DNA of 64,000 nt from Methanobacteriota archaeon (GTDB taxonomy: Archaea; Thermoplasmatota; Poseidoniia; Poseidoniales; Thalassarchaeaceae), in contig WTHQ01000020.1 in the NCBI GenBank assembly GCA_011523055.1, forward strand, positions 80,114-144,113, in the 5' to 3' direction. Both the position numbers and the translations under genes were made by a program. Every line of letters starts with the position of its first letter. Positions within the stretch are counted from its first letter, which is position 1. The notes under the pieces are model-generated. The model did not search any database. It saw nothing but the letters and a program-made list of their open reading frames with translations, and had not been told where the DNA came from. Shown here in pieces: positions 1,847-46,127 of the stretch.

Positions 1847-1870
1847 GTGCTTTCTATCTATGCAGAGTTC

Positions 1871-6291: not shown

Positions 6292-7467
6292 TAATAGCCC
6301 ACAAATAAGTCCGGGCAACAGGGTGTGAACAGTGGCCCATAGTGAGGCGGTGCGATGACGTACCAAAAGTGGGAACAGGGCATCTCCGTCCTGAGAGATG
6401 GCATTCGCAACCAATGCCGGGAAGGAAAGAATTCCTTCAACGTAGGCAGTTATTGCAATGATTTGGGGCCCACACCCTGGAATTAGGCCGATGGTTGCAG
6501 CTACTGCTATTGCCCCAGGCCCGTCTCCATTGGTGGCTAGGTCGGATTCAGTCGCCCCAGTTGAAAGCAATAATCCCTCAAAGACCAGGTAGGCTGCTAG
6601 GACCCACGTCGTGACAAAGGCCGTCTCCGATGCGGCGTGGGTCAGCGTTTCATCAAACGAGTGAAGCTTGTCCCCAATAGTTGCCTCAGTGTCATCTGCG
6701 ATGAAGCTCTTCCCTGCGATGTACAATACCAAAGACAGTATCGTGCCAGCCACCCCCACAACAGTGAGAATTCCATCTCTTGTGGACAAATCCCATGACA
6801 GCTCAGGATTGTAACTAGGTTCCCTGGCCAACCAAAATATGAGTAGTACCCCAAGGATGAAGCCGACCATAGTGACTAGCCACCATAACTTGTACCCACT
6901 ATGGACTATCTTGTAGGACAGAGTGCCTGGTTCCTCCCTCGGTAAATTGGAGATGATGTCAGTCATCTCCTTTTTCTCACTCCGGTCCTCTAATGTTTGA
7001 ATCGCCAGATTTCGTTGTGTAATTTTGGGCTTCATTCCGAAGGGGCTTTCAGGTGTGATCATCAACAAATCAGCCCCATAGCCCCAGATCACCCCAGCTA
7101 GGAATGAAATTAGGTGAACGAGGATCACTGGGGCGAGGAATTGATTGTCTTGAATCGCTGCCCCGAACAAAACAAAGGCAGAATCCCCCAGGGTGGCAAT
7201 CAGGGTCGCCAATACAGTCCCGTAGGTGACATAGCCCTTCGCGAACATCGGCATCATGATGATTGCTCCACCGCAACCGGGAATCACGCCCATTAGTGCT
7301 CCGATGAGTGGTTGCCATCTCTTACTCGACCTGATCCAATCAACGAACTTTCCAGCGGTAAGGTACTGTAGCCAGCTGAAGAGGAGGACCATGACGGCGA
7401 CGAACACCGTGACGGCAAGAAACGCATCACGCATTGCAACCAGAATCGTCTCCAGCAGTGGGTTCAC
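6262..7467 (-). CDS. Polytopic membrane protein with two internal repeats, each carrying a conserved IPGCG motif. Permease/transporter of unknown substrate.
   Basis: 401-aa ORF, about 10 TM helices. Motifs GVIPGCGGAIIMMPMF and GLIPGCGPQIIAITAYVEG sit in the N- and C-terminal halves. Located inside the Mo-cofactor/XDH locus. Confidence 0.55.
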   Translation of the reverse strand: MNPLLETILVAMRDAFLAVTVFVAVMVLLFSWLQYLTAGKFVDWIRSSKRWQPLIGALMGVIPGCGGAIIMMPMFAKGYVTYGTVLATLIATLGDSAFVLFGAAIQDNQFLAPVILVHLISFLAGVIWGYGADLLMITPESPFGMKPKITQRNLAIQTLEDRSEKKEMTDIISNLPREEPGTLSYKIVHSGYKLWWLVTMVGFILGVLLIFWLAREPSYNPELSWDLSTRDGILTVVGVAGTILSLVLYIAGKSFIADDTEATIGDKLHSFDETLTHAASETAFVTTWVLAAYLVFEGLLLSTGATESDLATNGDGPGAIAVAATIGLIPGCGPQIIAITAYVEGILSFPALVANAISQDGDALFPLLVRHRTASLWATVHTLLPGLICGLLLLWVGVDFP

Positions 7468-7493
7468 GGTTGTTACAAAAGGCTGGAAGACTT

Positions 7494-8360
7494 ATGACTT
7501 CCCAATGGCTGCAGGAGAAAAAGTGCAAGAGCACCGACGCGGAGATGTTTTTTTTGGGATCAATGACTCTGAGGTGGGCGTTGCACCAATTGGATTTATG
7601 CAATACCGTAGCCATGGCCTCAATAATTGACTCGGATGGTAGCGTCCCTGCCAAAGTGGGGGCGAAATTGGCATTTTCCACCTCTGGAGACAGACATGGC
7701 ACAGTCGGAGGAGCCGGTCTGGAACTCAAAATCGAACACAGACTGAGATCGATACTCAATGGTTCCGAGGGGGGAATTGAGACCTTCGTCCTCTCCAAGT
7801 CATCTAGTGATCCTTCCACCACCAACCTAAACAGCCTCTGTGGTGGCCGGGTGACTGTGGCATTCGAGAGGTTGGATCCAAGCCCCCATATTCTACTGAT
7901 GGGTGGCGGCCACGTTGCAAAAGCCATCAGCGAGGCATGTGAACTCTTGGGATGGCGACATAGCGTCTTTGATGAACGTGGGGAATACGCGTCCTCAGAG
8001 TCATTCCCCGCCTCAGTAGAAAGAATCCATGCCAGCGCAGATGAGTTCCTTGAAATTGAGACTGCCACGTCACTCTCACGGTTTTCCGATATTCTCCTGC
8101 TCGGCCATGACTGGGCGATAGATCAGAAGCTGTTGATTGGGCTGCTGTCATATTCCGAGGATATTCCATGTAGGATAGGGTGCATAGGATCAAAGACCAA
8201 GTGGAGAGAATTCACAAAGTCAGCGAAAGGAGAGGGAGTTTCAGACGATCGTTTGGGTTTGGTCAGATGCCCAATCGGCGCCCCGATAGGAGCTGTGACC
8301 GTGGAGGAGATAGCATTCGCTGTCTGTGGCGAGATCATCTCGCTCATCAGGACCTCGTGA
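7494..8360 (+). CDS. XdhC/CoxI-family accessory protein (Mo-cofactor insertion/maturation for XDH-family enzymes)
   Basis: N-terminal XdhC_CoxI-like segment VAMASIIDSDGSVPAKVGAKLAFSTSGDRHGTVGGAGLE. Rossmann-like XdhC_C LLMGGGHVAKAISEACELLGWRHSVFDER. First ATG at 7494; the listed ORF start 7434 is TTG. Confidence 0.7.
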   Translation: MTSQWLQEKKCKSTDAEMFFLGSMTLRWALHQLDLCNTVAMASIIDSDGSVPAKVGAKLAFSTSGDRHGTVGGAGLELKIEHRLRSILNGSEGGIETFVLSKSSSDPSTTNLNSLCGGRVTVAFERLDPSPHILLMGGGHVAKAISEACELLGWRHSVFDERGEYASSESFPASVERIHASADEFLEIETATSLSRFSDILLLGHDWAIDQKLLIGLLSYSEDIPCRIGCIGSKTKWREFTKSAKGEGVSDDRLGLVRCPIGAPIGAVTVEEIAFAVCGEIISLIRTS

Positions 8361-8398: not shown

Positions 8399-9067
8399 AT
8401 GGCAATGCAACAAACACTCGTGCGTAGGGTTAGGCTTAGGTGGAGTCGCTCAGACTTAGAAGGGGTAGCAGAGTTCAAACAGTTGATGGATGCTGTAAGA
8501 AAATACGAGGTGCTTGCCCACATGAAGCTGGGTGAAGAGGGTATCGAGCATCTCGCTGAGATAATCCCTGTGAAAGGTGAGTTGAGCGCAATGGATGACA
8601 TTCCAACTTTCGATGTGCTGGAAGTCCATGAGAAGGATGATGACTCTGGCTCATACCTAGTCTCTGTGAATCTTACACATTCCCTCCCGATGATGATGTT
8701 AGACCTGGAAAAAATACACTTACATCCGCCATATGGTTTAGACGAAGATGGACTCGAATTGAATTTTACTGGCCGATCAGACTCAATGAAGCGTCTCATT
8801 GAATTGCTGAGGATGATGATGCCCTGGGATTCGATCAGCATACAATCCGTCAGGAGCAATGTAGGCGACATGTGGCGAGGGATATTGACCGACCGACAAA
8901 TAGAAGTTCTTCGCCAGGCTGTAAATCTAGGGTACTACTCAGACGAGAGAGGGATCAAGATAAAAGATCTCGCAGAAAGTATGGGGATGGCAAGGTCCAC
9001 GATGGGGGGGCATCTCAAACTGATAGAACAATCTGTGATGTCAAAGGTGGTTGACGACTTAGGCTGA
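8399..9067 (+). CDS. Archaeal transcription regulator with C-terminal bat-type HTH_10 domain
   Basis: C-terminal LTDRQIEVLRQAVNLGYYSDERGIKIKDLAESMGMARSTMGGHLKLIEQ matches the bacterio-opsin activator HTH_10 pattern. Immediately upstream of the CoxSLM-like genes. Confidence 0.7.
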   Translation: MAMQQTLVRRVRLRWSRSDLEGVAEFKQLMDAVRKYEVLAHMKLGEEGIEHLAEIIPVKGELSAMDDIPTFDVLEVHEKDDDSGSYLVSVNLTHSLPMMMLDLEKIHLHPPYGLDEDGLELNFTGRSDSMKRLIELLRMMMPWDSISIQSVRSNVGDMWRGILTDRQIEVLRQAVNLGYYSDERGIKIKDLAESMGMARSTMGGHLKLIEQSVMSKVVDDLG

Positions 9068-9108: not shown

Positions 9109-9675
9109 ATGGCCCCGCAACCTCTGCCTTTGGCGGACGACGCCCCAGTGGCTGTTTGGAGTGCGGTAGTGAACGGTAATCCTGTCCGTGCGATCATAAA
9201 GAGTCATGATGTTCTGCTCGATGTAATCAGAGACGGAATCGGGTCACTAGGGACCAAGAGAGGGTGCGACATGGGAACCTGTGGCTGCTGCACTGTTATG
9301 ATTGATGGCAAACCAAGACTATCTTGTCTGACTCTTGCGATGGAGGCAAAAAACCACCAAATCACCACGGTGGAGGGTCTCTCCGACGGACATTATCTAC
9401 ATCCAATCCAAGATATGTTTGCCGAATGTGGTGGAAGTCAATGTGGATTTTGTACTCCGGGGTTTCTCGTTGCCAGTGCAGCGTTGTTGGATGGAAACCC
9501 AACACCAACAAGAGAGGAGGCCATGCAAGCCATAGAGGGTAACCTATGCAGATGCACGGGATACCAGCAAATTATCGATTCAATAATGAGCGCATCCAAG
9601 ATACTTTCTGAGGGGTCGCAGATTCAGGCCACCACCGAGCCAGCTAGCGATCCCCACCCGAATTCCAGGGGCTGA
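9109..9675 (+). CDS. [2Fe-2S] small subunit of xanthine dehydrogenase/aldehyde oxidase/CoxS family
   Basis: Plant-type ferredoxin motif CDMGTCGCCTV and second cluster motif CGFCTPGF...NLCRCTGYQQI. Confidence 0.85.
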   Translation: MAPQPLPLADDAPVAVWSAVVNGNPVRAIIKSHDVLLDVIRDGIGSLGTKRGCDMGTCGCCTVMIDGKPRLSCLTLAMEAKNHQITTVEGLSDGHYLHPIQDMFAECGGSQCGFCTPGFLVASAALLDGNPTPTREEAMQAIEGNLCRCTGYQQIIDSIMSASKILSEGSQIQATTEPASDPHPNSRG

Positions 9676-9679
9676 GCTA

Positions 9680-12454
9680 ATGTCGAAGGACAAGGAGATA
9701 GTCGGATATCGCCAACAGCCAGGCAAACTTGACTTTACTAGGCCAGGATCGGGTGGTTCCTCCCCCCTCTCAGAGGACAGGGACCCGGAAATGATTCCTG
9801 CGAGCCAAGGGGGGGAATTAGAGCAACCATGGGGCGCCCATCGTCATGACAACCTGGTCACAGGCAGGGTTATTGGGAAGAGGACGCCCTTGATTGACGG
9901 CAAGTGGAAGGTGACGGGGCAGGCCATTTACGGTGACGATGTCAGATTGCCGGGCGAGATAATCGGCCGCTTGGTGAGGACTGATCGCCATTACGCAAAA
10001 GTTCTCTCGATTGATATGACTGAGGCCGAGTCCATTCCGGGCGTTATCGCAACGGCGACGGGGGTAGACGCCCCATCCGCCTTTGGAGTCTTACCTGTTA
10101 CTAAGGACGAGCATGCAATGGCACTGGAGAAAGTGAGGCATATTGGAGACATTGTTGCATGCGTGGCTGCAGTTGACGAAGAGACCGCCAGGCTAGCGGC
10201 CAGCAAGGTCCAAGTGGAATACGAAGGGCTTGAACCGATTTTCGACATGAGGGACGGGTTGAAGAATTCGACAGACCCGATCCACGATAGAGGAAAATAC
10301 CACATTGGGGAGTCCAATGTTCAGAAAAGAGTGTTCCAGAGGTTCGGAAGAATATCCGACTTGGAGAAATCAATGGCCTCGTATGATGATGATTGGACAT
10401 TTAAGGGCGTGAATCATGGGTTTACAGAGCCACATGCGGTGGTGGCCCACTGGGATCCTAGGGGCCGTCTCACCCTCTACACCCCTCAGCAAGTTCCACA
10501 TTACGTTCATAGGGCTCTAGCAGATGTTTTGGAAATTCCAATGCACCAGATAAACGTCCACAGGACCTATGTGGGAGGTGGCTTCGGAGGGAAGTCCGAC
10601 CCATTCCCTCACGAGATGTGCGCAGCTATACTAGCGAGGAAGAGCGGTAGACCCGTTAGAATCACGTTTGATAGGGAAGAGGTTTTCTGGACAAACAGAG
10701 GACGTCACCCTTCCAGGATTTCAATGTCGATCCATGCTGATGATAAAGGGAGATTAAGCGGGATAGAAACTGACGCGTTGATCGATGGAGGCGGTTTCGC
10801 CTCGTTCGGTCATGTGACCACTTACTACAACGGGGTTCTCCATACCGCACCCTACGAGATAGGGGCATTCCATTACACTGGAGCAAGGGTCTGGACAAAC
10901 AAACCCGCCAGCGGGGCCATGAGAGGGCATGGGGCAGTAAACTCAAGGTGTGCAGTGGAAGTTGGGATTGACCACATCTCCGAAGAGATGGACGTGGACC
11001 CAATTGATCTCAGGCTCGCAAACCTCCTTCCGCCCAATTCAGCAACGATAACCGGTTTCAGGATAACTTCAATCGGAATGAGAGAGTGTCTTGAGAAGGT
11101 TCGCAGACAATCTGGATGGGACGAAAAGTTCAGGAAAATGCCTCTAGGCAAGGGAATTGGGGTAGGCTGTGGCTTCTTTATTTCTGGTAGTGGCCTACCG
11201 ATACACTGGGATCCCAACAAGTTTCCTCATGCCACCGTCCATCTGAAGATTGACATGGATGGGGGGGTTACAGTTCATACCGGTGCGGCTGACATTGGGC
11301 AGGGCTCCGACACTGTTGTTGGACAAGCGGTGGCCGAGGTCCTTGGCCTTCCTATGGACATGATAAGGATCAGGTCGAAAGAGTCAGACACATCTCCGGT
11401 CGATCTTGGTTCTTACTCCAGCAGAGTCACCTTCATGAACGCAAATGCAGCTGTCTCCGCTGCCATGGAAATAAGGTCCAACCTTATCGATGCTGCGTCC
11501 GAACTGACAGGCGTGGAGAGGGCTGACCTGGTTCTCGGAGATAGGCGAATATTCAACAAGAAGGATCCGGGCGTGGGAGTTTCCTACCTCGAAGCATTGC
11601 ACAAGGCACAGGAAGACAAAGGTGCTCTGATAGCCTCTGGGTCTTACAGAACGCCGCCCATGGGGAAAATGCACAAGGGCGCTGCTGCCGGATTGGCTCC
11701 TGCCTACTCCTTCTCTGCTTATGTCGCAGAGGTGGATGTCGATGTCGAGACAGGGAAAATCAAGGTAGAAAAAGTATGGGCAGCACATGATTGCGGAAAG
11801 GCTCTGAACCCACTCTCAGTTGAAGGGCAGATTATCGGATCATGCCACATGGGGCTGGGACAAGTCATATCCGAGGAGATGAAATACGGAAGAACTGGGA
11901 ACCTTCTGAACCCAGACCTCCTCGGCTACAAGATCCCGACGGTCCATGAAATGCCGGAGGTCGTCCCTATAATCGTAGAGTCAAATGATCCAGAAGGGCC
12001 ATTTGGAGCCAAGGAGGCGGGCGAAGGGCCCCTGTTGCCAATCCTCCCCGCGGTTTGCAATGCTGTCTACGACGCCATTGGAGTGAGGGTAAATGAGTTG
12101 CCACTCACCCCTGACAGATTGCACAGGGCAATAGAAAGGACCTGTAAGCATAAGGGGGTCAAAGATCCACGAGATCTCCCCAATCCATCTCTTCAGAAGG
12201 GGGCTTTGTCCGATGTGCTGATTGCACGGGCCGAGGTTCACTCAGAGAGAGACAAACAGAGAAGATTGAATCCAAATCCAGAGGCATACTTCAACGGGCA
12301 ACTATTCAACCATCTTACTACAGGGCCCCCGGAAGAGCATGATCCTGAATGGACTATTCAGGTTCTGCCAGACGAGGAGTATCTGAACAACCCGAAACTG
12401 GCTGGCAGCGCTTGGCTTCACAAGGAAAGAAGGCACATGGAGGAGTCTGGATGA
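9680..12454 (+). CDS. Molybdopterin-binding large subunit of an XDH/CoxL-family hydroxylase (substrate unknown; not a canonical CO dehydrogenase), with N- and C-terminal extensions
   Basis: YVGGGFGGK Mo-binding signature. Active-site loop reads TNKPASGAMRGHGAVNSRC, which is A-x-R-G-x-G type and lacks the AYRCSFR Cys motif of form-I CODH. 924 aa versus about 780-800 typical; approx. 150-aa unique C-terminal tail. Confidence 0.85.
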   Translation: MSKDKEIVGYRQQPGKLDFTRPGSGGSSPLSEDRDPEMIPASQGGELEQPWGAHRHDNLVTGRVIGKRTPLIDGKWKVTGQAIYGDDVRLPGEIIGRLVRTDRHYAKVLSIDMTEAESIPGVIATATGVDAPSAFGVLPVTKDEHAMALEKVRHIGDIVACVAAVDEETARLAASKVQVEYEGLEPIFDMRDGLKNSTDPIHDRGKYHIGESNVQKRVFQRFGRISDLEKSMASYDDDWTFKGVNHGFTEPHAVVAHWDPRGRLTLYTPQQVPHYVHRALADVLEIPMHQINVHRTYVGGGFGGKSDPFPHEMCAAILARKSGRPVRITFDREEVFWTNRGRHPSRISMSIHADDKGRLSGIETDALIDGGGFASFGHVTTYYNGVLHTAPYEIGAFHYTGARVWTNKPASGAMRGHGAVNSRCAVEVGIDHISEEMDVDPIDLRLANLLPPNSATITGFRITSIGMRECLEKVRRQSGWDEKFRKMPLGKGIGVGCGFFISGSGLPIHWDPNKFPHATVHLKIDMDGGVTVHTGAADIGQGSDTVVGQAVAEVLGLPMDMIRIRSKESDTSPVDLGSYSSRVTFMNANAAVSAAMEIRSNLIDAASELTGVERADLVLGDRRIFNKKDPGVGVSYLEALHKAQEDKGALIASGSYRTPPMGKMHKGAAAGLAPAYSFSAYVAEVDVDVETGKIKVEKVWAAHDCGKALNPLSVEGQIIGSCHMGLGQVISEEMKYGRTGNLLNPDLLGYKIPTVHEMPEVVPIIVESNDPEGPFGAKEAGEGPLLPILPAVCNAVYDAIGVRVNELPLTPDRLHRAIERTCKHKGVKDPRDLPNPSLQKGALSDVLIARAEVHSERDKQRRLNPNPEAYFNGQLFNHLTTGPPEEHDPEWTIQVLPDEEYLNNPKLAGSAWLHKERRHMEESG

Positions 12455-13455
12455 AGACCCCGGCATTTGAACTCCACATACCCACCACTTTGAAGGAGGC
12501 CCTGGGCATAGCCAGAGAATTGCATGAAAGGGGGCATGACTTTGACTGGATATCCGGGGGGACTGACCTAATTCCAAATTACAAGTGGGGAATCAACCCT
12601 CGACCTCATGTCATATCAATTTCAGGAGTTGATGAACTCAAGGGAATCTCCCCCACCAGGATTGGGGCGATGGCGAGATTGCAGGATATCGTGGAATCAC
12701 CGGTTGCGCACCCACTGATTGTTGAGGCGGCTGGGACGATTGCGAGTATAATGATCCGCAGGTCAGGGACACTTGGAGGGAACCTTTGCCTAGATACTAG
12801 GTGCTTCTGGCTCAACCAATCAGAGACATGGAGGAAGTCGATAGATTACTGTCACAAATGCGATGCGGGGACGGGTGCGGATTGCAGAGTGATCCCAAAC
12901 CAGAATGAGCTCTGTGTTGCGACCTACCAGGGAGATCTAGCACCTGCACTGATGTGCCTGGACGCAAGTGTTCACCTAGCCTCCCATAGGGGTACTCGGA
13001 GCATGCCGCTTGAGGACTTCTTCCAAGAAGACGGCATCACAAGAAACGTACTACAACAGGGAGAGATAGTCACACACGTCGAGATTCCAAAGGGTTCTAC
13101 GAGCGTAGTCGGGTCCTACCAGAAACTTCGTCATCGAGAGGCGTGGGATTTCCCAGAGGGGGGTGTCGCCTTCTCGGTATCACTCTCTGATGACGGCACC
13201 CCTGTTTCATTCAACATGGCTAGCACAGGGTTTGAGAGCATTCCTCGCAAGCATCACGATTTGGTTGAAACTATCTCAAAGGGTCCTGATTGGGCCGTGG
13301 AAGCAGAACGACTTGGGGTAGAACTCAAGAGAGCGGTCCGGCCCGTGCTAAACACGTGGTTCCCCCCAGCATATCGAAAGAAAATGGCCTCAGTGTTGGC
13401 CAGAAGAGCCATGGAAGAAGCCTCAAAAAGACTTACTTCGGCTTGGCAGTCATAG
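12451..13455 (+). CDS. FAD-binding medium subunit (CoxM/XdhB-like) of the XDH-family enzyme
   Basis: MKTPAFELHIPTTLKEALGIARELHERGHDFDWISGGTDLIPNYKW is a FAD-binding molybdopterin-dehydrogenase signature. Its ATG overlaps the CoxL stop in an ATGA arrangement (12451-12454). Confidence 0.8.
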   Translation: MKTPAFELHIPTTLKEALGIARELHERGHDFDWISGGTDLIPNYKWGINPRPHVISISGVDELKGISPTRIGAMARLQDIVESPVAHPLIVEAAGTIASIMIRRSGTLGGNLCLDTRCFWLNQSETWRKSIDYCHKCDAGTGADCRVIPNQNELCVATYQGDLAPALMCLDASVHLASHRGTRSMPLEDFFQEDGITRNVLQQGEIVTHVEIPKGSTSVVGSYQKLRHREAWDFPEGGVAFSVSLSDDGTPVSFNMASTGFESIPRKHHDLVETISKGPDWAVEAERLGVELKRAVRPVLNTWFPPAYRKKMASVLARRAMEEASKRLTSAWQS

Positions 13456-14351
13456 GCTTCCACCTATTATTGAGCATGGGTATCGCCACTGGACAAGATG
13501 GCCCAGGGGGATGGTCGGTGTCCATTTCAGATGAAAACGGGGAGTCCCAGAAAATTACACTTTCACAAGGTGGTGGCTCCTCTATACCGATACTAGTCGA
13601 AAATAACGAAATATTCGGTACCATAACAGTCTCCCTGGACTGCACTGCCCCATTTGAGGCACAGGTATCCTGTCCAGCTGATGTGACGGTGACCTCAGGA
13701 GAGAACACCACAGTATACGGAGTGGTGAGCGATGTCGATGTTCAGAGTATCCCAGCTGGTACGAATGAGTTGTTCGAGGTAACTGGCACAGTCGTAGCCA
13801 GGAATGGAGTTCCGATCGTACTCCCCGGGGACACGGATTCTGACGACGTTCCAGTTGAAATCCCAGAGATTTACAACCTGGAAGTGACCATCGACGATCC
13901 AGTAGGCCCGATAAACGCTGGAGCCGATACAATCCTGAAGGTCTTCGTCAAAAACATGGGCAACATTGCGGATAGAGTCTCCGAAACTGATGTCTCAGTG
14001 GATTGTACGCTCATAACGGTAGGAGGGCAGACTTCTGAGATAACAAATACCGAAATTGCGATCGGTGCCTCAATTTCAACAAACCTCGTATTTGAGGCTG
14101 CACTTAGCCACCCATCTAGATCGTGCGACGTGGAAATCCAGATTATATCCCAGGGTTCTGGCGGTAGCCAAACATCAACCGACTCTACAAGAATTGAAGT
14201 GCAAGCCGCAACAGATGATAATGAAGAGAAGAAGCCGACTGAAGATGACACAGGGACTGTCGAGGTAGTTACCACTGGACTTCCCTCAATAGGAATTCTT
14301 GGATCTACAGCATCATTGTTGATCGCGGCCTTTTTGCGAAGGAAGTCCTGA
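13443..14351 (+). CDS. Secreted, C-terminally membrane-anchored surface protein with CARDB/Ig-like fold region
   Basis: Signal-like N-terminus (KKTYFGLAVIGFHLLLSMGIATG). Body VTIDDPVGPINAGADTILKVFVKNMGNIADRVSETDVSVDC. C-terminal TM plus basic tail LPSIGILGSTASLLIAAFLRRKS. No in-frame ATG before the signal; TTG 13443 is proposed and the start is uncertain (the listed ORF TTG 13290 overlaps coxM). Confidence 0.5.
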   Translation: MAVIGFHLLLSMGIATGQDGPGGWSVSISDENGESQKITLSQGGGSSIPILVENNEIFGTITVSLDCTAPFEAQVSCPADVTVTSGENTTVYGVVSDVDVQSIPAGTNELFEVTGTVVARNGVPIVLPGDTDSDDVPVEIPEIYNLEVTIDDPVGPINAGADTILKVFVKNMGNIADRVSETDVSVDCTLITVGGQTSEITNTEIAIGASISTNLVFEAALSHPSRSCDVEIQIISQGSGGSQTSTDSTRIEVQAATDDNEEKKPTEDDTGTVEVVTTGLPSIGILGSTASLLIAAFLRRKS

Positions 14352-14439
14352 ATTCTCCTGCGTTTTCTAAAATGTGATTTCAACCCTCCTTCAGCAACCT
14401 ATAACACCTCGGGAATGCCCCAGACTTCTGTCGGCCTCC

Positions 14440-16089
14440 ATGGGGGGGCCTCAGTGGGCGGGGAATATGGCCAAAACAGACTCTGATACCGAGCGGTTCA
14501 ACAGAATCGTTGTTTGGTCACTCGGAGCCACTGCGGTCTTGCTACTGATCCTGCCTATGTTCTTCGTGTTGTCCAATGTGACCTACTACTCTGCCTATGT
14601 GGATAGTGGTGACACTGACGAGGAGAAATTCGCTCAGCTCTCAACAATGAGGTCTACACTAATGGAAGATTTGGACAGGGGAAATGGGGATGTCTCATTG
14701 GGATATGACGTCGCCAATACCATCTCAACCCCGATGCTCGTCAATGACTGGAGGGACCCCCACAGAAGCATGCTAGTGATAGTGGGGCCCGAGAAGCCGA
14801 TTGACCAGACTGAGGCACGGTCTATCCATGACTTCGTAACTAAATCAGGTGGGAAGGTGATCGTCGCTGCCGAAAACTCGAATGCCAACGAGCTGGCTTC
14901 CCTATTCGGAGTGACTTTTTTTGATGACCCCCTACACGACGAAAACCAACATTTCCTGATATACAACGAAGATGGAGAGCCCTACGCCCCATCATGGAGG
15001 AACGTTTGGTCTGCTGCCTCAGTTAGCCAGGACGTTGAATCCATGCAGCCTGCTTACCTCAGCCAAGTATGCACAGACGATCAAATCAGGAACAACCTCA
15101 TGACAAATTGCAGGCTCCCCCTGATGTTCAGATCCCCGACAGGAATGAAGTTTGAACCGACCAACATGGACCAGTCAGACCCTGAACATAGAACCGTGAA
15201 GATACTAGCCAAAGCTTCCTCAGGAGCGTTCATCGACGTCGCAGGCACTGGCGACGCTGGTGACTACAGAAACCCTGCCCCCGGGGACTTGGCCCTTGTC
15301 ATACGTGTGGACTACCCTGTGAAAGCATATGACAAGCCGCAAGAAAGTCAAGGTGGTTTCGCCGGCACCTCGGAGGTTGCCGAGGTTGACGTCACTGGAA
15401 GCATTACGTTCGTTGCAGATGATGAGGCATTCTCGAACATGCTATGGGATCTGCAACAAGCCCAAACCCAAGGAATAAGGTCAAACTGCGATACTGTGAA
15501 CTCCTGTTGGCTGGACGTCCTGCCCGAGGGGCAGTGGAATGGAAACTCAATGTATTTTTCAGCTTTGATTTTCGATATGATGGAACACAGGAACCCTGAT
15601 CTCTCATCCACATTCAGGGACGATAAATCACAATATCAGGTTGTTTTTGATGAAAGCAGACACTCCACAGGAAGATTATCCGCGCCCTTTGTCGAGACGA
15701 TGGGGACCGTGGTTCTTCTGACCTCTAACCCATTCTTGAAATGGCTCGTGGTCCTAAATGTCGGATTATTGCTTCTGGTGTCTATGATGGTTGTGCCGCA
15801 GAAGGAGAATTGGAGGCACGTGTTTGACCTGACCAGGTTCAAAGAAAGGCCTGGAAAGCTAGATCCCTCGACCTACAGAGAAAGGGTCCAACAGGCATTG
15901 TTCACCAAGGTGAGGGTTCACTATGATTTGACAAGAGACCAGTTAGCCCTCAAGCCCCCGTCCGAGGTTCAGGACATGATCAATGACCCCAAGCTAGTAG
16001 AATTGGCATACAGCCAATCTCGCGTTTACCATTCCCAAGAATTGCGACAATTGATGATCGCTATTCGTAAATGGGGGAAGCAAAACTGA
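14440..16089 (+). CDS. Membrane-anchored protein of the MoxR/DUF58 module (N- and C-terminal TM helices, large extracytoplasmic domain)
   Basis: N-terminal TM IVVWSLGATAVLLLILPMFFVL and C-terminal TM VVLLTSNPFLKWLVVLNVGLLLLVSMMVV. Sits directly upstream of MoxR. Alternative ATG at 14467. Confidence 0.55.
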   Translation: MGGPQWAGNMAKTDSDTERFNRIVVWSLGATAVLLLILPMFFVLSNVTYYSAYVDSGDTDEEKFAQLSTMRSTLMEDLDRGNGDVSLGYDVANTISTPMLVNDWRDPHRSMLVIVGPEKPIDQTEARSIHDFVTKSGGKVIVAAENSNANELASLFGVTFFDDPLHDENQHFLIYNEDGEPYAPSWRNVWSAASVSQDVESMQPAYLSQVCTDDQIRNNLMTNCRLPLMFRSPTGMKFEPTNMDQSDPEHRTVKILAKASSGAFIDVAGTGDAGDYRNPAPGDLALVIRVDYPVKAYDKPQESQGGFAGTSEVAEVDVTGSITFVADDEAFSNMLWDLQQAQTQGIRSNCDTVNSCWLDVLPEGQWNGNSMYFSALIFDMMEHRNPDLSSTFRDDKSQYQVVFDESRHSTGRLSAPFVETMGTVVLLTSNPFLKWLVVLNVGLLLLVSMMVVPQKENWRHVFDLTRFKERPGKLDPSTYRERVQQALFTKVRVHYDLTRDQLALKPPSEVQDMINDPKLVELAYSQSRVYHSQELRQLMIAIRKWGKQN

Positions 16090-16107
16090 AAAACAGGAGC
16101 GAATGAA

Positions 16108-17172
16108 ATGTCAGACACACCACCGCCACCAGCCAGTAGTAAGAACAAATCGAAGAACGCAGATAAAATTGAGGAAGGCTATGCAAAGAAGGCAGCAGAG
16201 GCCCGTGGAGGAGAGAAGGTTAGCGATCGGCTTACAGCCGTAAGTGCAATTGCGAAGGCAATCTCCGGCGAAGTACAGAAGGTCATTATCGGGAAATCTC
16301 ACGTCATTGACAACGTCCTGATAAATATCCTATCCAACGGCAACCTACTTTTCGAGGATTATCCTGGATTGGCGAAGACCCTGATGACGAATACTTTCGC
16401 AGATGCATTGGGTTGCGACTTCAAGAGGGTTCAATTCACCCCTGACCTGCTTCCAGCGGATATCACTGGAACGAACATCTATGATGCCAAGAAGGGAGAG
16501 TTTACGTTCAAGCCTGGACCAATATTTTGCAACCTTCTCCTGTCTGACGAGATTAACCGAGCCCCGCCAAAGACGCAAGCTGCGTTGCTAGAGGCGATGC
16601 AAGAAAAGCAGGTCACCATAGGAACTGTGACGCACAAACTACCTGCACCTTTCTTGACGATGGCCACACAGAACCCCGTCGAGCAAGAAGGGACATACCC
16701 GCTCCCCGAGGCTCAACTTGACAGGTTCATGTTCAAGATGAGCGTCGGCTACCCCGACAGAGGAGACGAGGACGAGATACTCGCTCGTAGAATAGAGCGA
16801 AAGAAGGACGATGTAGATGTCGAAGTGATCACCGATCCGTCCCGAGTAGTGGCCATGCAAGAGGCAATAGAAGACGTGTATGTTGACCCCGCTGTCAGGA
16901 TGTACATGGTAGAAGTTGTTGCAAGGACCAGGGAAGACCCGCGTGTCCTAGTGGGGTCATCTCCCCGTGGCTCCCAGGCATTGCTGAAGACCTCTCGTGC
17001 TGCGGCTGCAATGCGCGGAAGAGATTTCGTAACACCTGATGACGTCAAGTCAGTCGCAACACTGGCTGTATCCCACAGACTGATTCTGAAGCCAGAACAT
17101 CAGATTAAGGGCCTAGAGACAGAGGAAGTTGTGCGAGACATATTGAATCAGGTTCCAGTACCAACTGTATGA
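16108..17172 (+). CDS. MoxR-family AAA+ ATPase
   Basis: AAA_3 signature VIIGKSHVIDNVLINILSNGNLLFEDYPGLAKTLMTNTFADALG and LLSDEINRAPPKTQAALLEAMQEKQVTIG. Has an approx. 50-aa Ala/Lys-rich N-terminal extension. Confidence 0.85.
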   Translation: MSDTPPPPASSKNKSKNADKIEEGYAKKAAEARGGEKVSDRLTAVSAIAKAISGEVQKVIIGKSHVIDNVLINILSNGNLLFEDYPGLAKTLMTNTFADALGCDFKRVQFTPDLLPADITGTNIYDAKKGEFTFKPGPIFCNLLLSDEINRAPPKTQAALLEAMQEKQVTIGTVTHKLPAPFLTMATQNPVEQEGTYPLPEAQLDRFMFKMSVGYPDRGDEDEILARRIERKKDDVDVEVITDPSRVVAMQEAIEDVYVDPAVRMYMVEVVARTREDPRVLVGSSPRGSQALLKTSRAAAAMRGRDFVTPDDVKSVATLAVSHRLILKPEHQIKGLETEEVVRDILNQVPVPTV

Positions 17173-17229
17173 ATTTCAACCTAATTGTGGACAGGAGGGA
17201 TTGCACTGGCGTGGAGCAGAAAGTCAGCG

Positions 17230-18525
17230 ATGTTCGCATCACTGGCAATCGGGCTCTATCTACTTGGACTTGTTTTGAGAAATCAGCAACTTGTTACAGT
17301 CGCAGTCGTTCTGCTCTCATTCCTGACCTATGCTGCATTCAGAACCACGCACGCCGACGTGGCCTCCGCTGGGAGAAGGCTTGAGGACAACGATTCGGAC
17401 GAGGGGATTCAACTCGGTGGAATTTCAGCTCTGAGGAAGGTGTCTTCCTCGAGGGTATTCGAGGATGGCGAGATTGACGTAATTCTCAGAATTCAAAACA
17501 GGACGCCCATGGCGAAAATAATCGAGGTCAGGGACAGGGTGCCAGAGGTCATGCGGATAAAGAAGGGGGCGAATTACGTACTGATGGAACTCGGAGGCAG
17601 AAGAGAGACTGAAATTTCCTACACCATAGAGGCCCCTCTCAGAGGTTTCTACACCATTGGCCCTGTTTGCGTAAGGATCCAGGACACCTTCGGCCTGTTC
17701 CACAATGAACGTGAGATACAGCTCTATGATGACTTCCTCGTATTCCCCAAGATGGAGGACATCAAGGACGCCATGATCAAGAGTAAAGTCCCCAAGATAT
17801 TCACAGGTGCGGTGAACATAAGAAACCCAGGAGAAGGGTCCAATTTCTACAACCTCAGGGAGTACATTCCTGGGGACCCCATGAAGAAAGTGAATTGGAA
17901 TGCTACTGCAAGGAGTGGCGGGAAGATGATGGTGAATGAATACGAGAGGGACGCAGTTAGCGATATCATCCTCATAGTAGACAGTCGTGCGATAAGCGAA
18001 ACAGGTCCTGTGAGCCGGAACTCGTTGGTATACAGTACTCGAGCAGCTGCCAGCCTAGCGCAACATTTCCTTGCGAGACGTGATTCGGTTGGTCTCGTGA
18101 CCTATGGGGATGAAATTGTGTCTGTTGACAGGGACACAGGAAAAAAGCAACTTTACGTAATCCTAACCAAGTTGGCTGGAGCGGTTGCCAAGGGCAATAC
18201 TCCCTTGAGGGTTGTAACGAATAGGCTGATGCCGCATATCAACAGAGGAAGCCCGATCATCATACTCAGCCCATTAGAAGACGATCCAACCATCATTGAT
18301 GCCGTAAGGGACCTCAGAGCTAGGAATTTCATGGTCACCATACTTTCCCCCAGTAGCATTGATTTCGAGTTCGATGCCAGGAGGTTAGACCCGGTGGGCT
18401 ATGAGCTCCTCAAGACCGAGAGGGACATTCTGATGTCTGAGATTAGGGGGCTAGGGGCCAACATCATGGATTGGGAACCAGAAATGCTGCTTGTTACTGC
18501 CCTAGCAGGGGCAAGAGGATACTGA
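17230..18525 (+). CDS. DUF58 protein with vWA-like domain (MoxR partner)
   Basis: Hallmark DUF58 motif LREYIPGDPMKKVNWNATARSG. vWA-like DVSDIILIVDSRAIS. Two N-terminal TM helices. ATG 17230; a TTG alternative lies at 17185. Confidence 0.8.
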   Translation: MFASLAIGLYLLGLVLRNQQLVTVAVVLLSFLTYAAFRTTHADVASAGRRLEDNDSDEGIQLGGISALRKVSSSRVFEDGEIDVILRIQNRTPMAKIIEVRDRVPEVMRIKKGANYVLMELGGRRETEISYTIEAPLRGFYTIGPVCVRIQDTFGLFHNEREIQLYDDFLVFPKMEDIKDAMIKSKVPKIFTGAVNIRNPGEGSNFYNLREYIPGDPMKKVNWNATARSGGKMMVNEYERDAVSDIILIVDSRAISETGPVSRNSLVYSTRAAASLAQHFLARRDSVGLVTYGDEIVSVDRDTGKKQLYVILTKLAGAVAKGNTPLRVVTNRLMPHINRGSPIIILSPLEDDPTIIDAVRDLRARNFMVTILSPSSIDFEFDARRLDPVGYELLKTERDILMSEIRGLGANIMDWEPEMLLVTALAGARGY

Positions 18526-18534
18526 GGTGCGAAT

Positions 18535-19461
18535 ATGTCAGACGAAACCAATACAGACACCTCACACCTGTATGAGGGCAAAAGCGTAAGATCCTCCGCG
18601 CCAAGCAGGAAAAAGGCAGCAGGTCGAGTTACACAGTCAACCTCCATACCGAAGGATGCCATTCCCGAAACGAAGATTCCGACATGGGTAGAGTCATTTT
18701 TCGGAGGCCCCCTGGTCCCCTCGGTCAAGTTCCTGAGTCCGAACAAAACAGTGGTCAGGCTACAAATGGCATCTGTCACCACATTGGTTATGCTTGGATT
18801 AGTAACATTCGTGATTACCCCCTCCTCCGGAACCGTCTGGTTCTGGCTCTCGAACGTTGTCGGAGTGCCTTTCTTCAGCGGGCTTATTCACTACCTCCTA
18901 TTGATCGGGGGGGTTGTCTTGGGAGCCTACGGCATCCTTCAAAGAGACCAGCGGATGATTCTGATATCACAGGTAGCAATGATTCTGATCACCATTCGAT
19001 TCGCAGGAAGCAAGGTAGAATTCGCTATGGCAGCATTGGATATTGACAATGAATTTATCCAGAAGTTATTGCTAATCTTCTACGCATTATTCCTGGTGAT
19101 GTACATTGAGCTTTCTTCAGGAGTTATTCGTTTTTCGATGCTTGACACATCAATCAGAACCCGTGAGGTCTACGTAATGGGGCAGGATAAAATTATCCAG
19201 AAATACAACAGGTCCTTGGGGACAACTCCGTTGATAGCAGGTTTCGTAGCACTGATCACCCTTCTCATAAATGTCATCATTCCTGCAATTATCGGAATTT
19301 TTGACGAGGTATCCTCAAACAGGCTGAGCGAAAGCGTCGAGTTGACGAGCGTGTATGGAGTCGCGCTAGGTACCGCGATGGTGTTCGGCCTGATTGCAAT
19401 ATCTTTCAGCGTGAACCTTCCAGCGAGAATACAGAAGTTCCAAGAAGGACGTTCGAGATAA
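18535..19461 (+). CDS. Polytopic membrane protein (last gene of the MoxR module)
   Basis: ATG start 5 bp after the DUF58 gene stop. Multiple hydrophobic helices; 308 aa. Confidence 0.55.
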   Translation: MSDETNTDTSHLYEGKSVRSSAPSRKKAAGRVTQSTSIPKDAIPETKIPTWVESFFGGPLVPSVKFLSPNKTVVRLQMASVTTLVMLGLVTFVITPSSGTVWFWLSNVVGVPFFSGLIHYLLLIGGVVLGAYGILQRDQRMILISQVAMILITIRFAGSKVEFAMAALDIDNEFIQKLLLIFYALFLVMYIELSSGVIRFSMLDTSIRTREVYVMGQDKIIQKYNRSLGTTPLIAGFVALITLLINVIIPAIIGIFDEVSSNRLSESVELTSVYGVALGTAMVFGLIAISFSVNLPARIQKFQEGRSR

Positions 19462-19480
19462 CCAGACTACTCATTTGAGC

Positions 19481-20572
19481 CTAATGCTCTTTTGCCATCT
19501 CAAGAAGATCCGCGATGACGAGGACTGCCGATGCTTCGACCACAGGAACCGCCCTAGGTCCGATGACTGGGTCATGCCTGCCCTTGATGTTGAGGGGGGC
19601 CTTCTCCCCACTTGGAAGGTGAAGTGTGCTCTGGGTCTTGGAGATGCTGCTTGGTGGTTTGAAATGAACAACAATGCGCAGGGGGGCCCCAGTCGACCTT
19701 CCGCCCAAGGCGCCATCGGGCATGTTACCTGACTCCGATTCTTGGGAAATCATCCCTTCATGGATGGCCCACGCGTCGTTGTGCTCAGATCCCTTCATGG
19801 TGGAGGATCGGAAACCTTTGCTGAACTCAACTGCCCTAGCACCGGGTATTGCCATCATGACCCTGGCTAATGCAGGTTCGATCCCATCAAACCATGGCTC
19901 TCCGATGCCCATTGGAAGACCCTCAATTAGACATTCCACAGCAGAGCCAATGGAGTCACCGGCTTTCCTGCTCGCTTCCACGTCAATCGAGAAAATTTTT
20001 GACATTTCAGGATCGCAACAATTCAACCTCTGCATCTCACTATTCTCAATGTCTGAGTCTGGTTCCAGATTTACGAGGGAGTTTGCAACCCTTTCTCCTA
20101 CGGCGTACAGTCCGGCCCTCACGGAGATATTCTCTGCGGACAGCAGTTGTCTCACCTGACTCGCTGCTGCCACCAATCCGAGAGTCAATCTAGCGGATTG
20201 TGAGCCTCCGCCCCTGAGATCCGTGAAACCCCCGGATCTTTCAATTTCCACCATGTCAGCGTGTCCTGGTCTCGGGTGGTCTGGTAGAAATCCATAATCT
20301 TTAGACCTGGCATCATTATTTCTCGCGAGGAGTAGGATTGGCCACCCCGTGGCCACACCATCGTGCACGCCAGACATGATCTCACATTCGTCAGATTCCA
20401 GTCGCCTACTCATTCCTTTTCTGCCAGGCTTCCGCCTCTCTATCTCTTCGATTAGCGTGTCATAGTCTATTGGGGTCCCAGGGGGGATGCCCTGAAGGAG
20501 TGCACCTACGCAGGCCCCATGACTCTCCCCGAAAAGGGTAATTCGGATTTTGTTGCCGAGTGTCATCCCCAT
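19481..20572 (-). CDS. aroC: Chorismate synthase
   Basis: N-terminus MGMTLGNKIRITLFGESHGACVGALLQGIPPG and GGGSQSARLT motifs are typical AroC. Confidence 0.85.
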   Translation of the reverse strand: MGMTLGNKIRITLFGESHGACVGALLQGIPPGTPIDYDTLIEEIERRKPGRKGMSRRLESDECEIMSGVHDGVATGWPILLLARNNDARSKDYGFLPDHPRPGHADMVEIERSGGFTDLRGGGSQSARLTLGLVAAASQVRQLLSAENISVRAGLYAVGERVANSLVNLEPDSDIENSEMQRLNCCDPEMSKIFSIDVEASRKAGDSIGSAVECLIEGLPMGIGEPWFDGIEPALARVMMAIPGARAVEFSKGFRSSTMKGSEHNDAWAIHEGMISQESESGNMPDGALGGRSTGAPLRIVVHFKPPSSISKTQSTLHLPSGEKAPLNIKGRHDPVIGPRAVPVVEASAVLVIADLLEMAKEH

Positions 20573-27374: not shown

Positions 27375-29456
27375 TCAATCTAATGAGACCCTTGAGAAAA
27401 ACAACATCGACTCTCTGAAGAGTTCTTCCCTCCTGAGCCTCTTGTTTCGCCTCAGATGGAAGAATGTGAACAAGAAAACTAATCCAATTAAAAATGGTAT
27501 CAAGACTTCTGCCTGATACCTTTCCATGAACTCAATTATTCCCCGCGCCGTATATGCCCAGGTTATCGAAGCAGCGGTTCCACCCACAGTACAGGCCAAG
27601 AGAACCCTCTCAAACTTCATCCTTGCAACAAGACCAAGCATGGCTCCGACCAGTACACCGCTGGCCATGAATGGTATCCAAACAAAGACGATCAGGCCCC
27701 AGAATCCATATTTGTCTATCCTGTTCCTGTTTCTCTGTGCGACATACTCAACGCTAGAGAGGATGTCTCCCCCCACAGTTTGCAATAGTGTTCCAGTGAT
27801 GCCATGTTGTTTTGCAACCAGTGCCTCTCCGGCGAAATCTGATCCTCCCTGTTCTACTCTACCGGCCACAGCTTGATCCGCGAGGGTTCTTTTGAGATTC
27901 CTAGCGCTGACGATCACCTTTCGGTCCCCCAGGAGGTTCGATAGCCCATCCCTCAAGCGATCAGAAAGGCTCTCCTCTATCTCTAGGAAATTTCGTGGGA
28001 ATAGGAAATATCCAAATCTCATTTTTGGTCGATAGATCATTCTGACATAGATCGCCTTTTCATCTGCAGAAACAAGTGTGCCTTCATCCTCTAGGTCATA
28101 TTGGTTAAGCAGTTCTTGGATGACTGGCCTGGCTAGGTCCTCAATTGTCCCGATGATGGAGATGGACTCAAAGAATGGTCTGTAGTCATCATCCACGACT
28201 GAGGGGTCAAATCCATGCATCGTCAAATCATTGTCGAGCATTATCGTTTCTTCAGACAGACTTGCAGTCATTGATTGCACCCTCAACTGGAGGGGCCTCA
28301 TTTCTCCGAAGATCGAGAACTCAGAAAGAAGGTTGCGCAATAGAGTCGACCTAACGTCGGTGACAGTCATGATGCTCCTGCTCTGGGGAGCGTATGGCAC
28401 GAATACATCAATTGAAATGGCTCTCTCTTGCATTCTCAATAGTTCGAAGTCGATCTTTACAGAGACTTCCTCCTGTGAGTTTTCAAGAACCCTAGTTATC
28501 AACCTCTTCACCTGTTCTTTGTTTAGGGCTTCTTCACCCTCTCGGTGGTACATCTTGTGCATCAATGGGTACTGTATGCAGAGGAAGACGATCGACATCC
28601 CCAGGGATACGAAGGCCATCCACCAGGCAGGGACACCCCCACTCCCTCCTGTCAGCATGGCTGTCTCTCTTCCACCTGCCCATTCAGCTGCCATCAGAAG
28701 CCACCCCCACTCGCCGAGATCCTTGAAAGTCAAGCAAGCACGAGGTCCCGTTTCTCTGAGGTCAATGTCTATTACCTCTTCATCAGAAAACAGTCCAGAA
28801 AACAATCCGCCCCCAGCACGGCGCTCCACCCCAACAGAGGACGATTGAGAGAAAATTTCGCTCGATCCGAGAGTGATATTACTATCGTCTACCGAGGGGT
28901 CTGAGCTTAGGTTGTGCAGTGAAACGGTCAAAGTCTGATCGCCGACAAAGAGATCTTCCCCCTCTATCTCGATCGCAAGGTTGCCTGTCCCACGTTGGAA
29001 GATTTCAGTGAGGTTCCCATCGATATTTGTGTATGATACTACCATAGCTGTATTTATTTCAGGAACGTTGTACGATTTCACTTTGAGATCGTGATGATCT
29101 TCGTATATCGAAAGCCAGATCTGTCCCTGTTTATCGATGCATTCGCCACCGTTATCCAATGGGGTCTTGGAGAGAGTTTGGTCGATGGTCACAGAGTCGC
29201 CCGAAAGTAAACCCGTGCTGGCGGTGGCAATCAGTAAGAGGAAGAAGCCACCAAATGCAACCCCGAAGAGGAGGACATAGTCCTCAACTGCCCATCTAAA
29301 GAACCTCGTGTCCCCCAGTCTTCTCTCCCTGATTGAGTCTAATTCTCGGTCCAACTTGGCGCGCTCTGCCTCAGAGAAGATGTGAGATATGTCCCCCGCG
29401 TCAACTTTACCATCCTTGTTTAGGTCGAGAGAGTGGTGCTCGCCCCGCGATGGCAT
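27375..29456 (-). CDS. Membrane protein with N-terminal EF-hand/dockerin-like Ca-binding loop, large extracytoplasmic domain and C-terminal multi-TM domain
   Basis: Real start at the ATG MPSRGEHHSLDLNKDGKVDAGD. The listed ORF runs on to 29627 only by reading through the tRNA-Leu gene. Loop DLNKDGKVDAGD is D-x-N-x-D-G-x-x-D. C-terminus has 4 TM helices. Confidence 0.55.
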   Translation of the reverse strand: MPSRGEHHSLDLNKDGKVDAGDISHIFSEAERAKLDRELDSIRERRLGDTRFFRWAVEDYVLLFGVAFGGFFLLLIATASTGLLSGDSVTIDQTLSKTPLDNGGECIDKQGQIWLSIYEDHHDLKVKSYNVPEINTAMVVSYTNIDGNLTEIFQRGTGNLAIEIEGEDLFVGDQTLTVSLHNLSSDPSVDDSNITLGSSEIFSQSSSVGVERRAGGGLFSGLFSDEEVIDIDLRETGPRACLTFKDLGEWGWLLMAAEWAGGRETAMLTGGSGGVPAWWMAFVSLGMSIVFLCIQYPLMHKMYHREGEEALNKEQVKRLITRVLENSQEEVSVKIDFELLRMQERAISIDVFVPYAPQSRSIMTVTDVRSTLLRNLLSEFSIFGEMRPLQLRVQSMTASLSEETIMLDNDLTMHGFDPSVVDDDYRPFFESISIIGTIEDLARPVIQELLNQYDLEDEGTLVSADEKAIYVRMIYRPKMRFGYFLFPRNFLEIEESLSDRLRDGLSNLLGDRKVIVSARNLKRTLADQAVAGRVEQGGSDFAGEALVAKQHGITGTLLQTVGGDILSSVEYVAQRNRNRIDKYGFWGLIVFVWIPFMASGVLVGAMLGLVARMKFERVLLACTVGGTAASITWAYTARGIIEFMERYQAEVLIPFLIGLVFLFTFFHLRRNKRLRREELFRESMLFFSRVSLD

Positions 29457-29523
29457 AGTTTTCGAATTGGCAGGTACTTCATCAAACCGTTGGCTTATTT
29501 TTTGGAAACCCCGTTGAAGATAT

Positions 29524-46080: not shown

Positions 46081-46127
46081 CGTGGGCCCCTCCAGTGGGT
46101 GGCAATTGAAGATGCCGGGGGAATGGA

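Follow-up and report, generated by a model that had tools for sequence, protein, structure and literature searches.

A MoxR-DUF58-DUF4350 gene block of a Marine Group IIb archaeon as a version of the archaeal arCOG01314 module

Gene content of the locus

Pairs of a MoxR-proper (MRP) ATPase and a DUF58 protein are among the most widespread prokaryotic AAA+ systems still without a defined client. We describe one such pair in a 64,000-nucleotide (nt) stretch of contig WTHQ01000020.1 (the window; positions are counted from its first letter). The source is an uncultured Marine Group IIb (MGIIb) archaeon of Candidatus Thalassarchaeaceae, Poseidoniales, a group that ranks with the most abundant surface-ocean archaea. 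The pair stands in a row of five genes on one strand, here called g1 to g5, encoding a secreted protein with immunoglobulin-like (Ig-like) domains, a DUF4350 protein with two transmembrane (TM) helices, the MoxR ATPase, the DUF58 protein, and a membrane protein with about six TM helices (Table 1). A first-pass annotation made from the letters had listed five open reading frames (ORFs) in this order and had named the MoxR and DUF58 products, the latter by its LREYIPGD...ARSG signature; translations and Pfam searches agree on each point. The block is the MGIIb version of a known, uncharacterised archaeal module, that of the arCOG01314 neighbourhoods (Makarova et al., 2015; PMC5898192), and the idea that it serves the cell envelope was anticipated there and is not new.

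The ATPase encoded by g3 matches Pfam AAA_3 over its full length (213.7 bits) and AAA_lid_2 (81.7 bits), carries Walker A (PGLAKT) and Walker B (LLLSDE) motifs, and has no signal peptide or TM helix. Its nearest solved structure is 2R44 (E = 6e-81), with BchI at only 3e-7. The AAA_3 and AAA_lid_2 domains and the DUF58 partner gene assign it, on sequence grounds, to the MRP subfamily. The g4 product scores 55 bits with Pfam DUF58 and has the signature LREYIPGD...NWNATARSGG. It consists of an N-terminal TM hairpin, a predicted beta-sandwich region, and a vWA-like domain, and the alignment shows conservation also ahead of the DUF58 domain. At the position of the metal-ion-dependent adhesion site (MIDAS), D-x-R-x-x-S stands in place of DxSxS, and D251, R253, and S256 are invariant, even in distant homologues of 39-46% identity. 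A sequence search found no solved relative of this protein. We infer that its beta-sandwich and vWA-like domains lie in the cytoplasm, because most positive charge follows the second helix (positive-inside rule) and because contact with MoxR would need this placement.

DUF4350 proteins are the namesake component of the archaeal module. The g2 product scores 29.3 bits with Pfam DUF4350, just below the cut-off of 30.4, and weakly with ABC_transp_aux (GldG-like), and 20/20 of its homologues match both families. The g2 family profile also aligns over its full length, tail included, with the DUF4350 protein of a distant archaeal locus described below (L092; hhalign 99.6%, E = 8e-25), which itself scores 50.7 bits on DUF4350. 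Together, the profile alignment and the homologue matches confirm g2 as encoding a DUF4350, arCOG01314-type protein by sequence comparison. DUF4350 had been suggested for the flanking proteins together with DUF4129 and transglutaminase domains; neither of the last two appeared in g1, g2, or g5, with matches down to E <= 1 considered in family members (20-21 of them for g2 and g5). In the predicted topology of g2, a GldG-like ectodomain of about 370 residues, in which four cysteines are invariant, lies between an N-terminal and a second TM helix, and the latter is followed by a cytoplasmic tail of about 95 almost invariant residues. Homologues of g2 fall into 444 clusters, all source-named ones from Poseidoniales, Thalassarchaeaceae, or "Euryarchaeota archaeon", and tblastn against plasmids gave no match.

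The last gene, g5, encodes a protein without a Pfam or NCBIfam match. Its structural model (pLDDT 68, pTM 0.64) shows about six TM helices packed in a bundle. A predicted cytoplasmic N-terminal tail of about 65 residues is conserved, as are the loops GxYGIxQRDQR, YxELSxGxIRFSMLDTSIRT, and ESVELTSVYGVALGT. The family forms 790 clusters at 90% identity, and an exhaustive profile search of 1.84 billion representatives gave only 80 matches, mostly fragments, with one full-length 50% cluster. Three distant relatives share the motifs GxYGI..RD, Y.E....I.F..L, and S.EL.S.YG, and g5 is homologous to 179-residue proteins that follow DUF58 in two distant lineages (loci L101 and L092; hhalign 98.4%). By these comparisons g5 represents an undescribed membrane-protein family, encoded next after DUF58 in three deep lineages. 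A more diverged g5 lineage (IRYSMLDTSIRTNEVYVMN) occurs in L104 (ENA ERZ28548091), P0269, P0272, P0284, and P0288, all of them frameshift-ridden or short contigs, and keeps the synteny cox-g1-DUF4350-MoxR-DUF58-g5-aroC.

The surface protein g1 probably starts at GTG 13356, and its homologues are called from the corresponding position. Choosing ATG 13476 would lose the signal peptide; upstream of that codon the g1 frame encodes a conserved signal-peptide-like segment (LKKTYFGLAVIGFHLLLSMGIATG/QDG). Between its signal-like N-terminus and its C-terminal TM helix with an RRK tail, the protein carries two Ig-like beta-sandwich domains and an acidic linker. Its C-terminus (14256-14351) comprises an invariant VEVVTTGLPxxG motif, followed by the TM helix and RRK, a layout that resembles archaeosortase-type tripartite sorting signals (PGF-CTERM and relatives). 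NCBIfam sorting-signal models gave no match to this C-terminus, and g1 is alone among the large ORFs of the window in having a tail of this kind.

No Pfam family matches g1. CARDB (PF07705) appears below threshold in 17/18 g1 homologues (best E = 0.017), the window protein scoring 10.8 bits against a cut-off of 22.7, and a local NxGN-type motif aligns with a true CARDB protein at an hhalign probability of only 2%. The NCBIfam model "choice-of-anchor T" reaches E = 6.6e-9, which is under its cut-off. Since these matches stay below their thresholds, the CARDB label first given to g1 is only weakly supported. An AlphaFold2 model has two beta-sandwich domains at low confidence (pLDDT 52 overall, about 70-80 for domain 2), and its Foldseek matches are tandem Ig-like folds. 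The protein evolves fast, and a search of 5.8 billion proteins found only 27 clusters at 60% identity or more.

With refined starts, the intergenic gaps between g1, g2, MoxR, DUF58, and g5 are 115, 18, 57, and 9 nt, which replaces the earlier range of 5-90 bp. Because g1 starts at GTG 13356, it overlaps coxM, the last gene of the upstream molybdenum (Mo) enzyme operon, by about 100 nt (stop at 13455), as the first-pass annotation had noted for the block, and the 3' part of coxM, read in another frame, encodes its signal peptide. In each MGIIb genus examined, g1 either begins within coxM or adjoins its stop (0 to about 100 nt, the overlap of about 100 nt being that of the window's genus), and by this arrangement g1 is translationally coupled to coxM. 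Between g1 and g2, in the same genera, lies a spacer of always 106-200 nt that holds a box, CAGCAAC(C/A)TATAA(C/T), about 60-75 nt 5' of the g2 ATG. Its AAC.TATA core is invariant in an alignment of 13 g1-g2 spacers, and 68 distinct locus sequences (L001-L089) carry the box ahead of g2, which suggests a putative promoter of g2-g5 of their own. Because g1 is coupled to coxM while g2-g5 follow this conserved promoter-like box, there are probably two transcription units, coxSLM-g1 and g2-MoxR-DUF58-g5, in place of the one five-gene block first described.

A hairpin lies about 30 nt 3' of the box, with the inner stem GGCCTCC/GGGGGCC at 14433-14450. The stems vary by genus with pairing kept (TTGGGCC-TAC-GGCCCAA, TGTAGG-TGCTG-CCTACA, and CAGCACC-GTA-GGTGCTG), and one group of genera has no clear hairpin in the g2 leader. 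RNAalifold detected no structure in a MAFFT alignment of the leaders, in which the variable stems were out of register, so the leaders were folded one by one. Across 61 distinct g2 leaders, RNAfold gave a mean z of -1.2, with z < -1 in 64%. An Rfam search over 13000-20000 gave no credible match, the hairpin included.

The Poseidoniales origin of the window is reflected in its homologues and neighbours. Named homologues are labelled Thalassarchaeaceae, Poseidoniales, or "Euryarchaeota archaeon", many marine metagenome contigs carry exact copies of the g5 protein, and the archaeal type II dehydroquinate synthase nearby is consistent with this source. Convergent shikimate genes are next after g5, and no paralogues of the block genes were found within the window. 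Upstream, the coxS/L/M-like genes (9109-13455) encode a Mo hydroxylase of the xanthine dehydrogenase (XDH) family by Pfam. As we read its sequence, CoxL (…GAMRGHG…) is without the active-site motif of form-I carbon monoxide dehydrogenase, and we take it to be a generic XDH-family enzyme. Its best plasmid matches are generic XDH-family subunits of about 33% identity. Putative xanthine dehydrogenase genes have been described in metagenome-assembled genomes of Thalassarchaeaceae (Damashek et al., 2021; PMC9723583).

The first-pass annotation had also tied the block to giant envelope proteins elsewhere in the window. These lie 17-37 kb away, are not linked to the block, and do not share the C-terminal anchor of g1. 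Among window ORFs of about 900 residues or more, only the FG-GAP-repeat protein and the subtilase with true CARDB are of surface type, the remaining ones being aconitase and a 2-oxoacid dehydrogenase E1. A tRNA-Leu gene (29524-29608, minus strand) lies inside the 5' end of a maximal ORF (27375-29627) of the Sm_multidrug_ex family, whose product has 727 residues on other contigs, so the gene must start downstream of the tRNA.

Table 1. Positions of the genes and other features discussed, in window coordinates.
Feature	Positions	Strand	Basis
2-oxoacid dehydrogenase E1	1847-4678		
XdhC	7434-8360	+	Pfam
HTH_10 regulator	8399-9067	+	Pfam
coxS-like	9109-9675	+	Pfam
coxL-like	9680-12454	+	Pfam
coxM-like	12451-13455	+	Pfam
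g1, secreted tandem Ig-like protein, predicted C-terminal anchor	13356-14351	+	ORF, homologue starts
Promoter-like box (B recognition element (BRE)/TATA-like)	14392-14405	+	spacer alignment
5'-leader hairpin (predicted)	14426-14463	+	RNAfold
g2, two-TM DUF4350 protein	14467-16089	+	ORF, Pfam, hhalign
g3, MoxR ATPase, MRP type	16108-17172	+	Pfam AAA_3/AAA_lid_2
g4, membrane-anchored DUF58 protein	17230-18525	+	Pfam DUF58
g5, protein with about six TM helices, without Pfam family	18535-19461	+	ORF
Chorismate synthase (AroC)	19481-20572		compared for conservation
FG-GAP-repeat giant protein, 2181 residues	36264-42809	-	
Aconitase	43390-46131		
Subtilase with true CARDB and C-terminal zinc ribbon, 1566 residues	56063-60763	+	

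Conservation in MGIIb and in two distant lineages

Gene order was compared across species genomes of GTDB, which were scanned with the DUF58 protein. The scan gave 451 relatives, the closest 80 of which (82-99% identity) were used for loci. The order g1-g2-MoxR-DUF58-g5 is kept in all loci with enough flank (67/67 species), and coxM lies upstream of g1 in 66/66 MGIIb loci, counted in the same way. Conservation of the order in relatives, the lack of which the first-pass annotation had named as refuting its idea, is thus found, and the joining of MoxR and DUF58 to membrane and surface proteins that it proposed holds in these 67 loci and in two deep lineages (below). Such constancy of five genes is far more than chance would give.

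Median identities to the window proteins are 88% for MoxR (78 species loci), 85% for DUF58 (80 species), 77% for CoxL, 64% for AroC, 61% for g5, 60% for g2, and 34% for g1. MoxR and DUF58 are therefore the most conserved genes of the neighbourhood, above CoxL and chorismate synthase, which is unusual for a DUF58 protein, and purifying selection on both is unusually strong. Identity declines from the inside of the cell to the outside, the cytoplasmic proteins being the most conserved and the exposed g1 the least. With MoxR and DUF58 conserved beyond core metabolic enzymes, the module is probably important for the cell envelope of these uncultured archaea.

Distant relatives of g5 led to two AT-rich archaeal lineages in which the core is also present. 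In locus L092 the order is a TSP3-repeat protein, an Ig-repeat protein ending in DUF4129, DUF4350, MoxR, DUF58, and a 179-residue g5-like protein. In loci L101-L103 it is a TSP3 protein, a 1669-residue Laminin_G/DUF2341/CARDB protein, DUF4350, MoxR, DUF58, a 179-residue g5-like protein, and a histone gene. The core in both thus lies directly 3' of giant surface proteins with TSP3, Ig-repeat, Laminin_G, or CARDB domains, and no cox or Mo-enzyme genes were found near it in these loci. The two lineages and the window are mutually equidistant, with identities of 60-66% for MoxR, 39-46% for DUF58, 22-35% for DUF4350, and 28-30% for g5. A cox-free core behind Ig/CARDB surface proteins in both lineages indicates that the four-gene core is ancient and independent of the Mo enzyme. 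Among other distant g5-like sequences, P0345 and P0340 lie on contigs too short for context, and L093 is a disrupted fragment.

A predicted envelope complex and its alternatives

We consider it reasonably probable that the block encodes a membrane-embedded complex, powered by the MoxR AAA+ ATPase, that acts on Ig-like surface proteins. In the scheme that we infer for the physical contacts, the direction of action, and the client, a cytoplasmic MoxR hexamer would engage the vWA-like domain of DUF58, which its two-helix hairpin would keep at the inner face of the membrane. DUF58 would in turn contact the conserved cytoplasmic elements of its partners, namely the C-terminal tail of g2 and the N-terminal tail and loops of g5. 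Remodelling driven by ATP could then be relayed to the extracellular GldG-like domain of g2, which would assemble, position, or remodel Ig-like surface proteins, g1 being the candidate client here. What the sequences show of this scheme is its parts, their predicted sidedness, and their co-inheritance. The first-pass annotation had proposed a maturation or insertion system for envelope proteins. The envelope part of that proposal matches the arCOG01314 prediction (PMC5898192), and maturation or insertion itself is a hypothesis.

Several observations weigh against this envelope complex. The whole region of about 16 kb is syntenic in MGIIb, including the unrelated shikimate genes, so that gene order within MGIIb says little alone and is no proof of a functional link. 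The candidate client g1 is tied to coxM and not to g2, the largest gap and the promoter-like box fall between g1 and g2, its homology to the Ig/CARDB surface proteins of the distant modules is undetectable, and its structural model is of low confidence. The vWA-like domain of g4 lacks the canonical MIDAS motif. Makarova et al. (2015; PMC5898192) call the DUF58 protein likely secreted, and a secreted DUF58 could make no contact with MoxR.

Some of these observations would be explained if the locus held two unrelated units, g1 being part of the cox operon or an independent surface protein, the module comprising g2-MoxR-DUF58-g5 only, and the adjacency being synteny inherited in a compact genome. 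The overlapping or abutting g1/coxM genes, the g1-g2 gap of 106-200 nt with its TATA-like box, the lack of homology between g1 and the surface proteins upstream of the distant modules, and the equal synteny of the flanking housekeeping genes all agree with such a division. However, both distant lineages also have a gene for an Ig/CARDB-type protein directly 5' of DUF4350, several non-homologous Ig-like families are listed for such neighbourhoods (Makarova et al.; PMC5898192), and it is hard to see what a secreted, anchored Ig-like protein would do for a cytoplasmic Mo enzyme. We therefore regard two unrelated units as unlikely.

A more specific alternative is that MoxR and DUF58 serve the adjacent XDH-family enzyme in the manner of CoxD and CoxE, perhaps tethering it to the membrane. 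CoxD (AAA+), CoxE (a membrane-bound vWA protein), and the XdhC-like CoxF are required for assembly of the carbon monoxide dehydrogenase active site (PMC4240915). On plasmid pHCG3 of Afipia (Oligotropha) carboxidovorans, coxMSL is followed by genes for a MoxR-like ATPase, a vWA protein, and an XdhC-family protein, and the window likewise has a MoxR-family ATPase, a vWA-type membrane protein, and an XdhC-family gene beside coxS/L/M-type genes. The genes coxS-coxL-coxM lie directly upstream in 66/66 MGIIb loci, and in all genera g1 overlaps or adjoins the end of coxM. Yet the proteins themselves differ. The window MoxR aligns with pHCG3 CoxD at only 30% over 109 residues (BLASTP, E = 8e-7), and CoxD is of AAA_5 type with an AAA_3 score below threshold. 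CoxE belongs to VWA_CoxE (288 bits), a Pfam family that matches no window protein, and DUF58 against CoxE gives E > 1. The pHCG3 system also has no DUF4350, Ig-like, or g5-type partners. Identity of MoxR/DUF58 with CoxD/CoxE was rejected, the proteins being of different subfamilies with essentially no pairwise similarity.

The genomic setting also speaks against a role in Mo-enzyme maturation. The same core, with MoxR 60-65% identical, occurs cox-free beside giant surface proteins in two lineages, g2-g5 stand behind their own conserved promoter-like box, the extracellular g1 and the g2 ectodomain have no role for a cytoplasmic enzyme, and synteny extends equally to the shikimate genes on the other side. 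The dissimilarity to CoxD/CoxE and the cox-free distant modules make orthology impossible and a Cox-related function unlikely, and we hold Mo-enzyme maturation of this kind to be quite improbable. Slightly less probable still is that in MGIIb the MoxR-DUF58-DUF4350-g5 set was recruited to the Mo enzyme as a non-homologous analogue of CoxD/CoxE/CoxG, for maturation or membrane docking. Such recruitment, if right, would explain the universal linkage, the coxM-g1 coupling, and the strong conservation of MoxR and DUF58, and would give the first concrete client for a MoxR/DUF58 pair of MRP type.

A conflict or defence system of the MoxR-vWA ternary type, with an NTP-dependent response to invasion, could be suspected from a weak Pfam bpMoxR match on the ATPase (37 bits), but AAA_3 scores 214 bits there, beta-propeller and effector domains are absent, PADLOC gave 0 matches for all five proteins, and the position of the locus is fixed and strongly conserved in every species examined, unlike patchy defence islands, so that we give this reading hardly any credence.

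Comparison with known systems

Several operons in other prokaryotes combine a MoxR ATPase with a DUF58 protein and membrane or surface proteins. In the Bat (aerotolerance) operons of Bacteroides and Flavobacterium and in Rhizobium RL3499-RL3502, an MRP-type MoxR gene is followed by DUF58 and then by genes for membrane proteins, and mutant phenotypes implicate the cell envelope or else stress tolerance. The window proteins g1, g2, and g5 have no Pfam match to the BatA/BatB-type VWA or TPR domains of Bat-type operons.

Actinobacterial operons share with the window the order of a DUF4350 or secreted FN3/Ig-like protein, an MRP-type MoxR, DUF58, and a polytopic membrane protein. Examples are Rv3689-Rv3695 of Mycobacterium tuberculosis, of which Rv3691-Rv3693 are co-regulated, in M. 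chelonae (PMC8191103), and the bifidobacterial PFNA cluster, pkb2-fn3-MoxR-duf58-tgm (PMC8430577). The actinobacterial versions carry transglutaminase/DUF4129, SpoIIM-like or RDD membrane proteins, and a Ser/Thr kinase, whereas the window block is without all of these.

Haloarchaeal clusters such as that on Haloferax mediterranei plasmid pHME322 have the order DUF4129, DUF7269-DUF11-DUF58, DUF7519, MoxR. Like the window, they combine MoxR with a membrane-anchored Ig-like plus DUF58 protein followed by a small polytopic membrane protein. Unlike the window, DUF4129 replaces DUF4350 and the gene order differs, and the DUF58 identity is only 23-28%. We also considered g5 as a DUF7519 protein (PF24363) and rejected this; there was no Pfam match and hhalign gave 7%, whereas the haloarchaeal proteins score 123-155 bits. 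In the pHME322 locus (L096, 8657-13661 of the locus), DUF4129-DUF58-DUF7519-MoxR adjoins a "baseplate J/gp47 family protein" and a very large hypothetical protein, with halocin H4 nearby.

The closest known system is the arCOG01314 module. Makarova, Galperin, and Koonin (2015; Biochimie; PMC5898192, section 3.2, Table 2) predicted that arCOG01314 neighbourhoods encode a novel secretion or membrane-remodelling complex. Its parts are a membrane-anchored DUF4350 protein with an extracellular flavodoxin/GldG-like domain, a COG0714 MoxR, and an Ig-like plus vWA protein, joined by several non-homologous families of Ig-like, S-layer-like proteins and by membrane proteins with 2-5 TM helices. A full-text literature search found no experimental follow-up of this prediction. 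The window block has the same parts list, which in the 2015 description makes up one predicted operon. It holds DUF4350, a MoxR gene 18 nt after g2, an adjacent DUF58 gene, and an association that extends to deep lineages, and g1 supplies the Ig-like secreted protein, at a low-confidence domain assignment (pLDDT 52). The module lists families with 5 TM helices (arCOG07126 and arCOG11232), to which g5, with about six and only 9 nt after DUF58, is likened by protein type only. Both g1 and g5 come from families without Pfam models, and the comparison with the corresponding arCOGs is likewise by type.

The MGIIb version also has features of its own. Poseidoniales were not covered in 2015, g5 of the window has an additional N-terminal tail, conserved over about 65 residues, the module is joined to the end of a coxSLM-like operon, and the DUF58 domain, likely secreted according to the 2015 paper, is placed in the cytoplasm here. 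To the known picture, which stays unchanged, the present analysis adds a parts list, the g5 family, predicted topologies that put the conserved tails within reach of the ATPase, and the promoter-like box with its hairpin.

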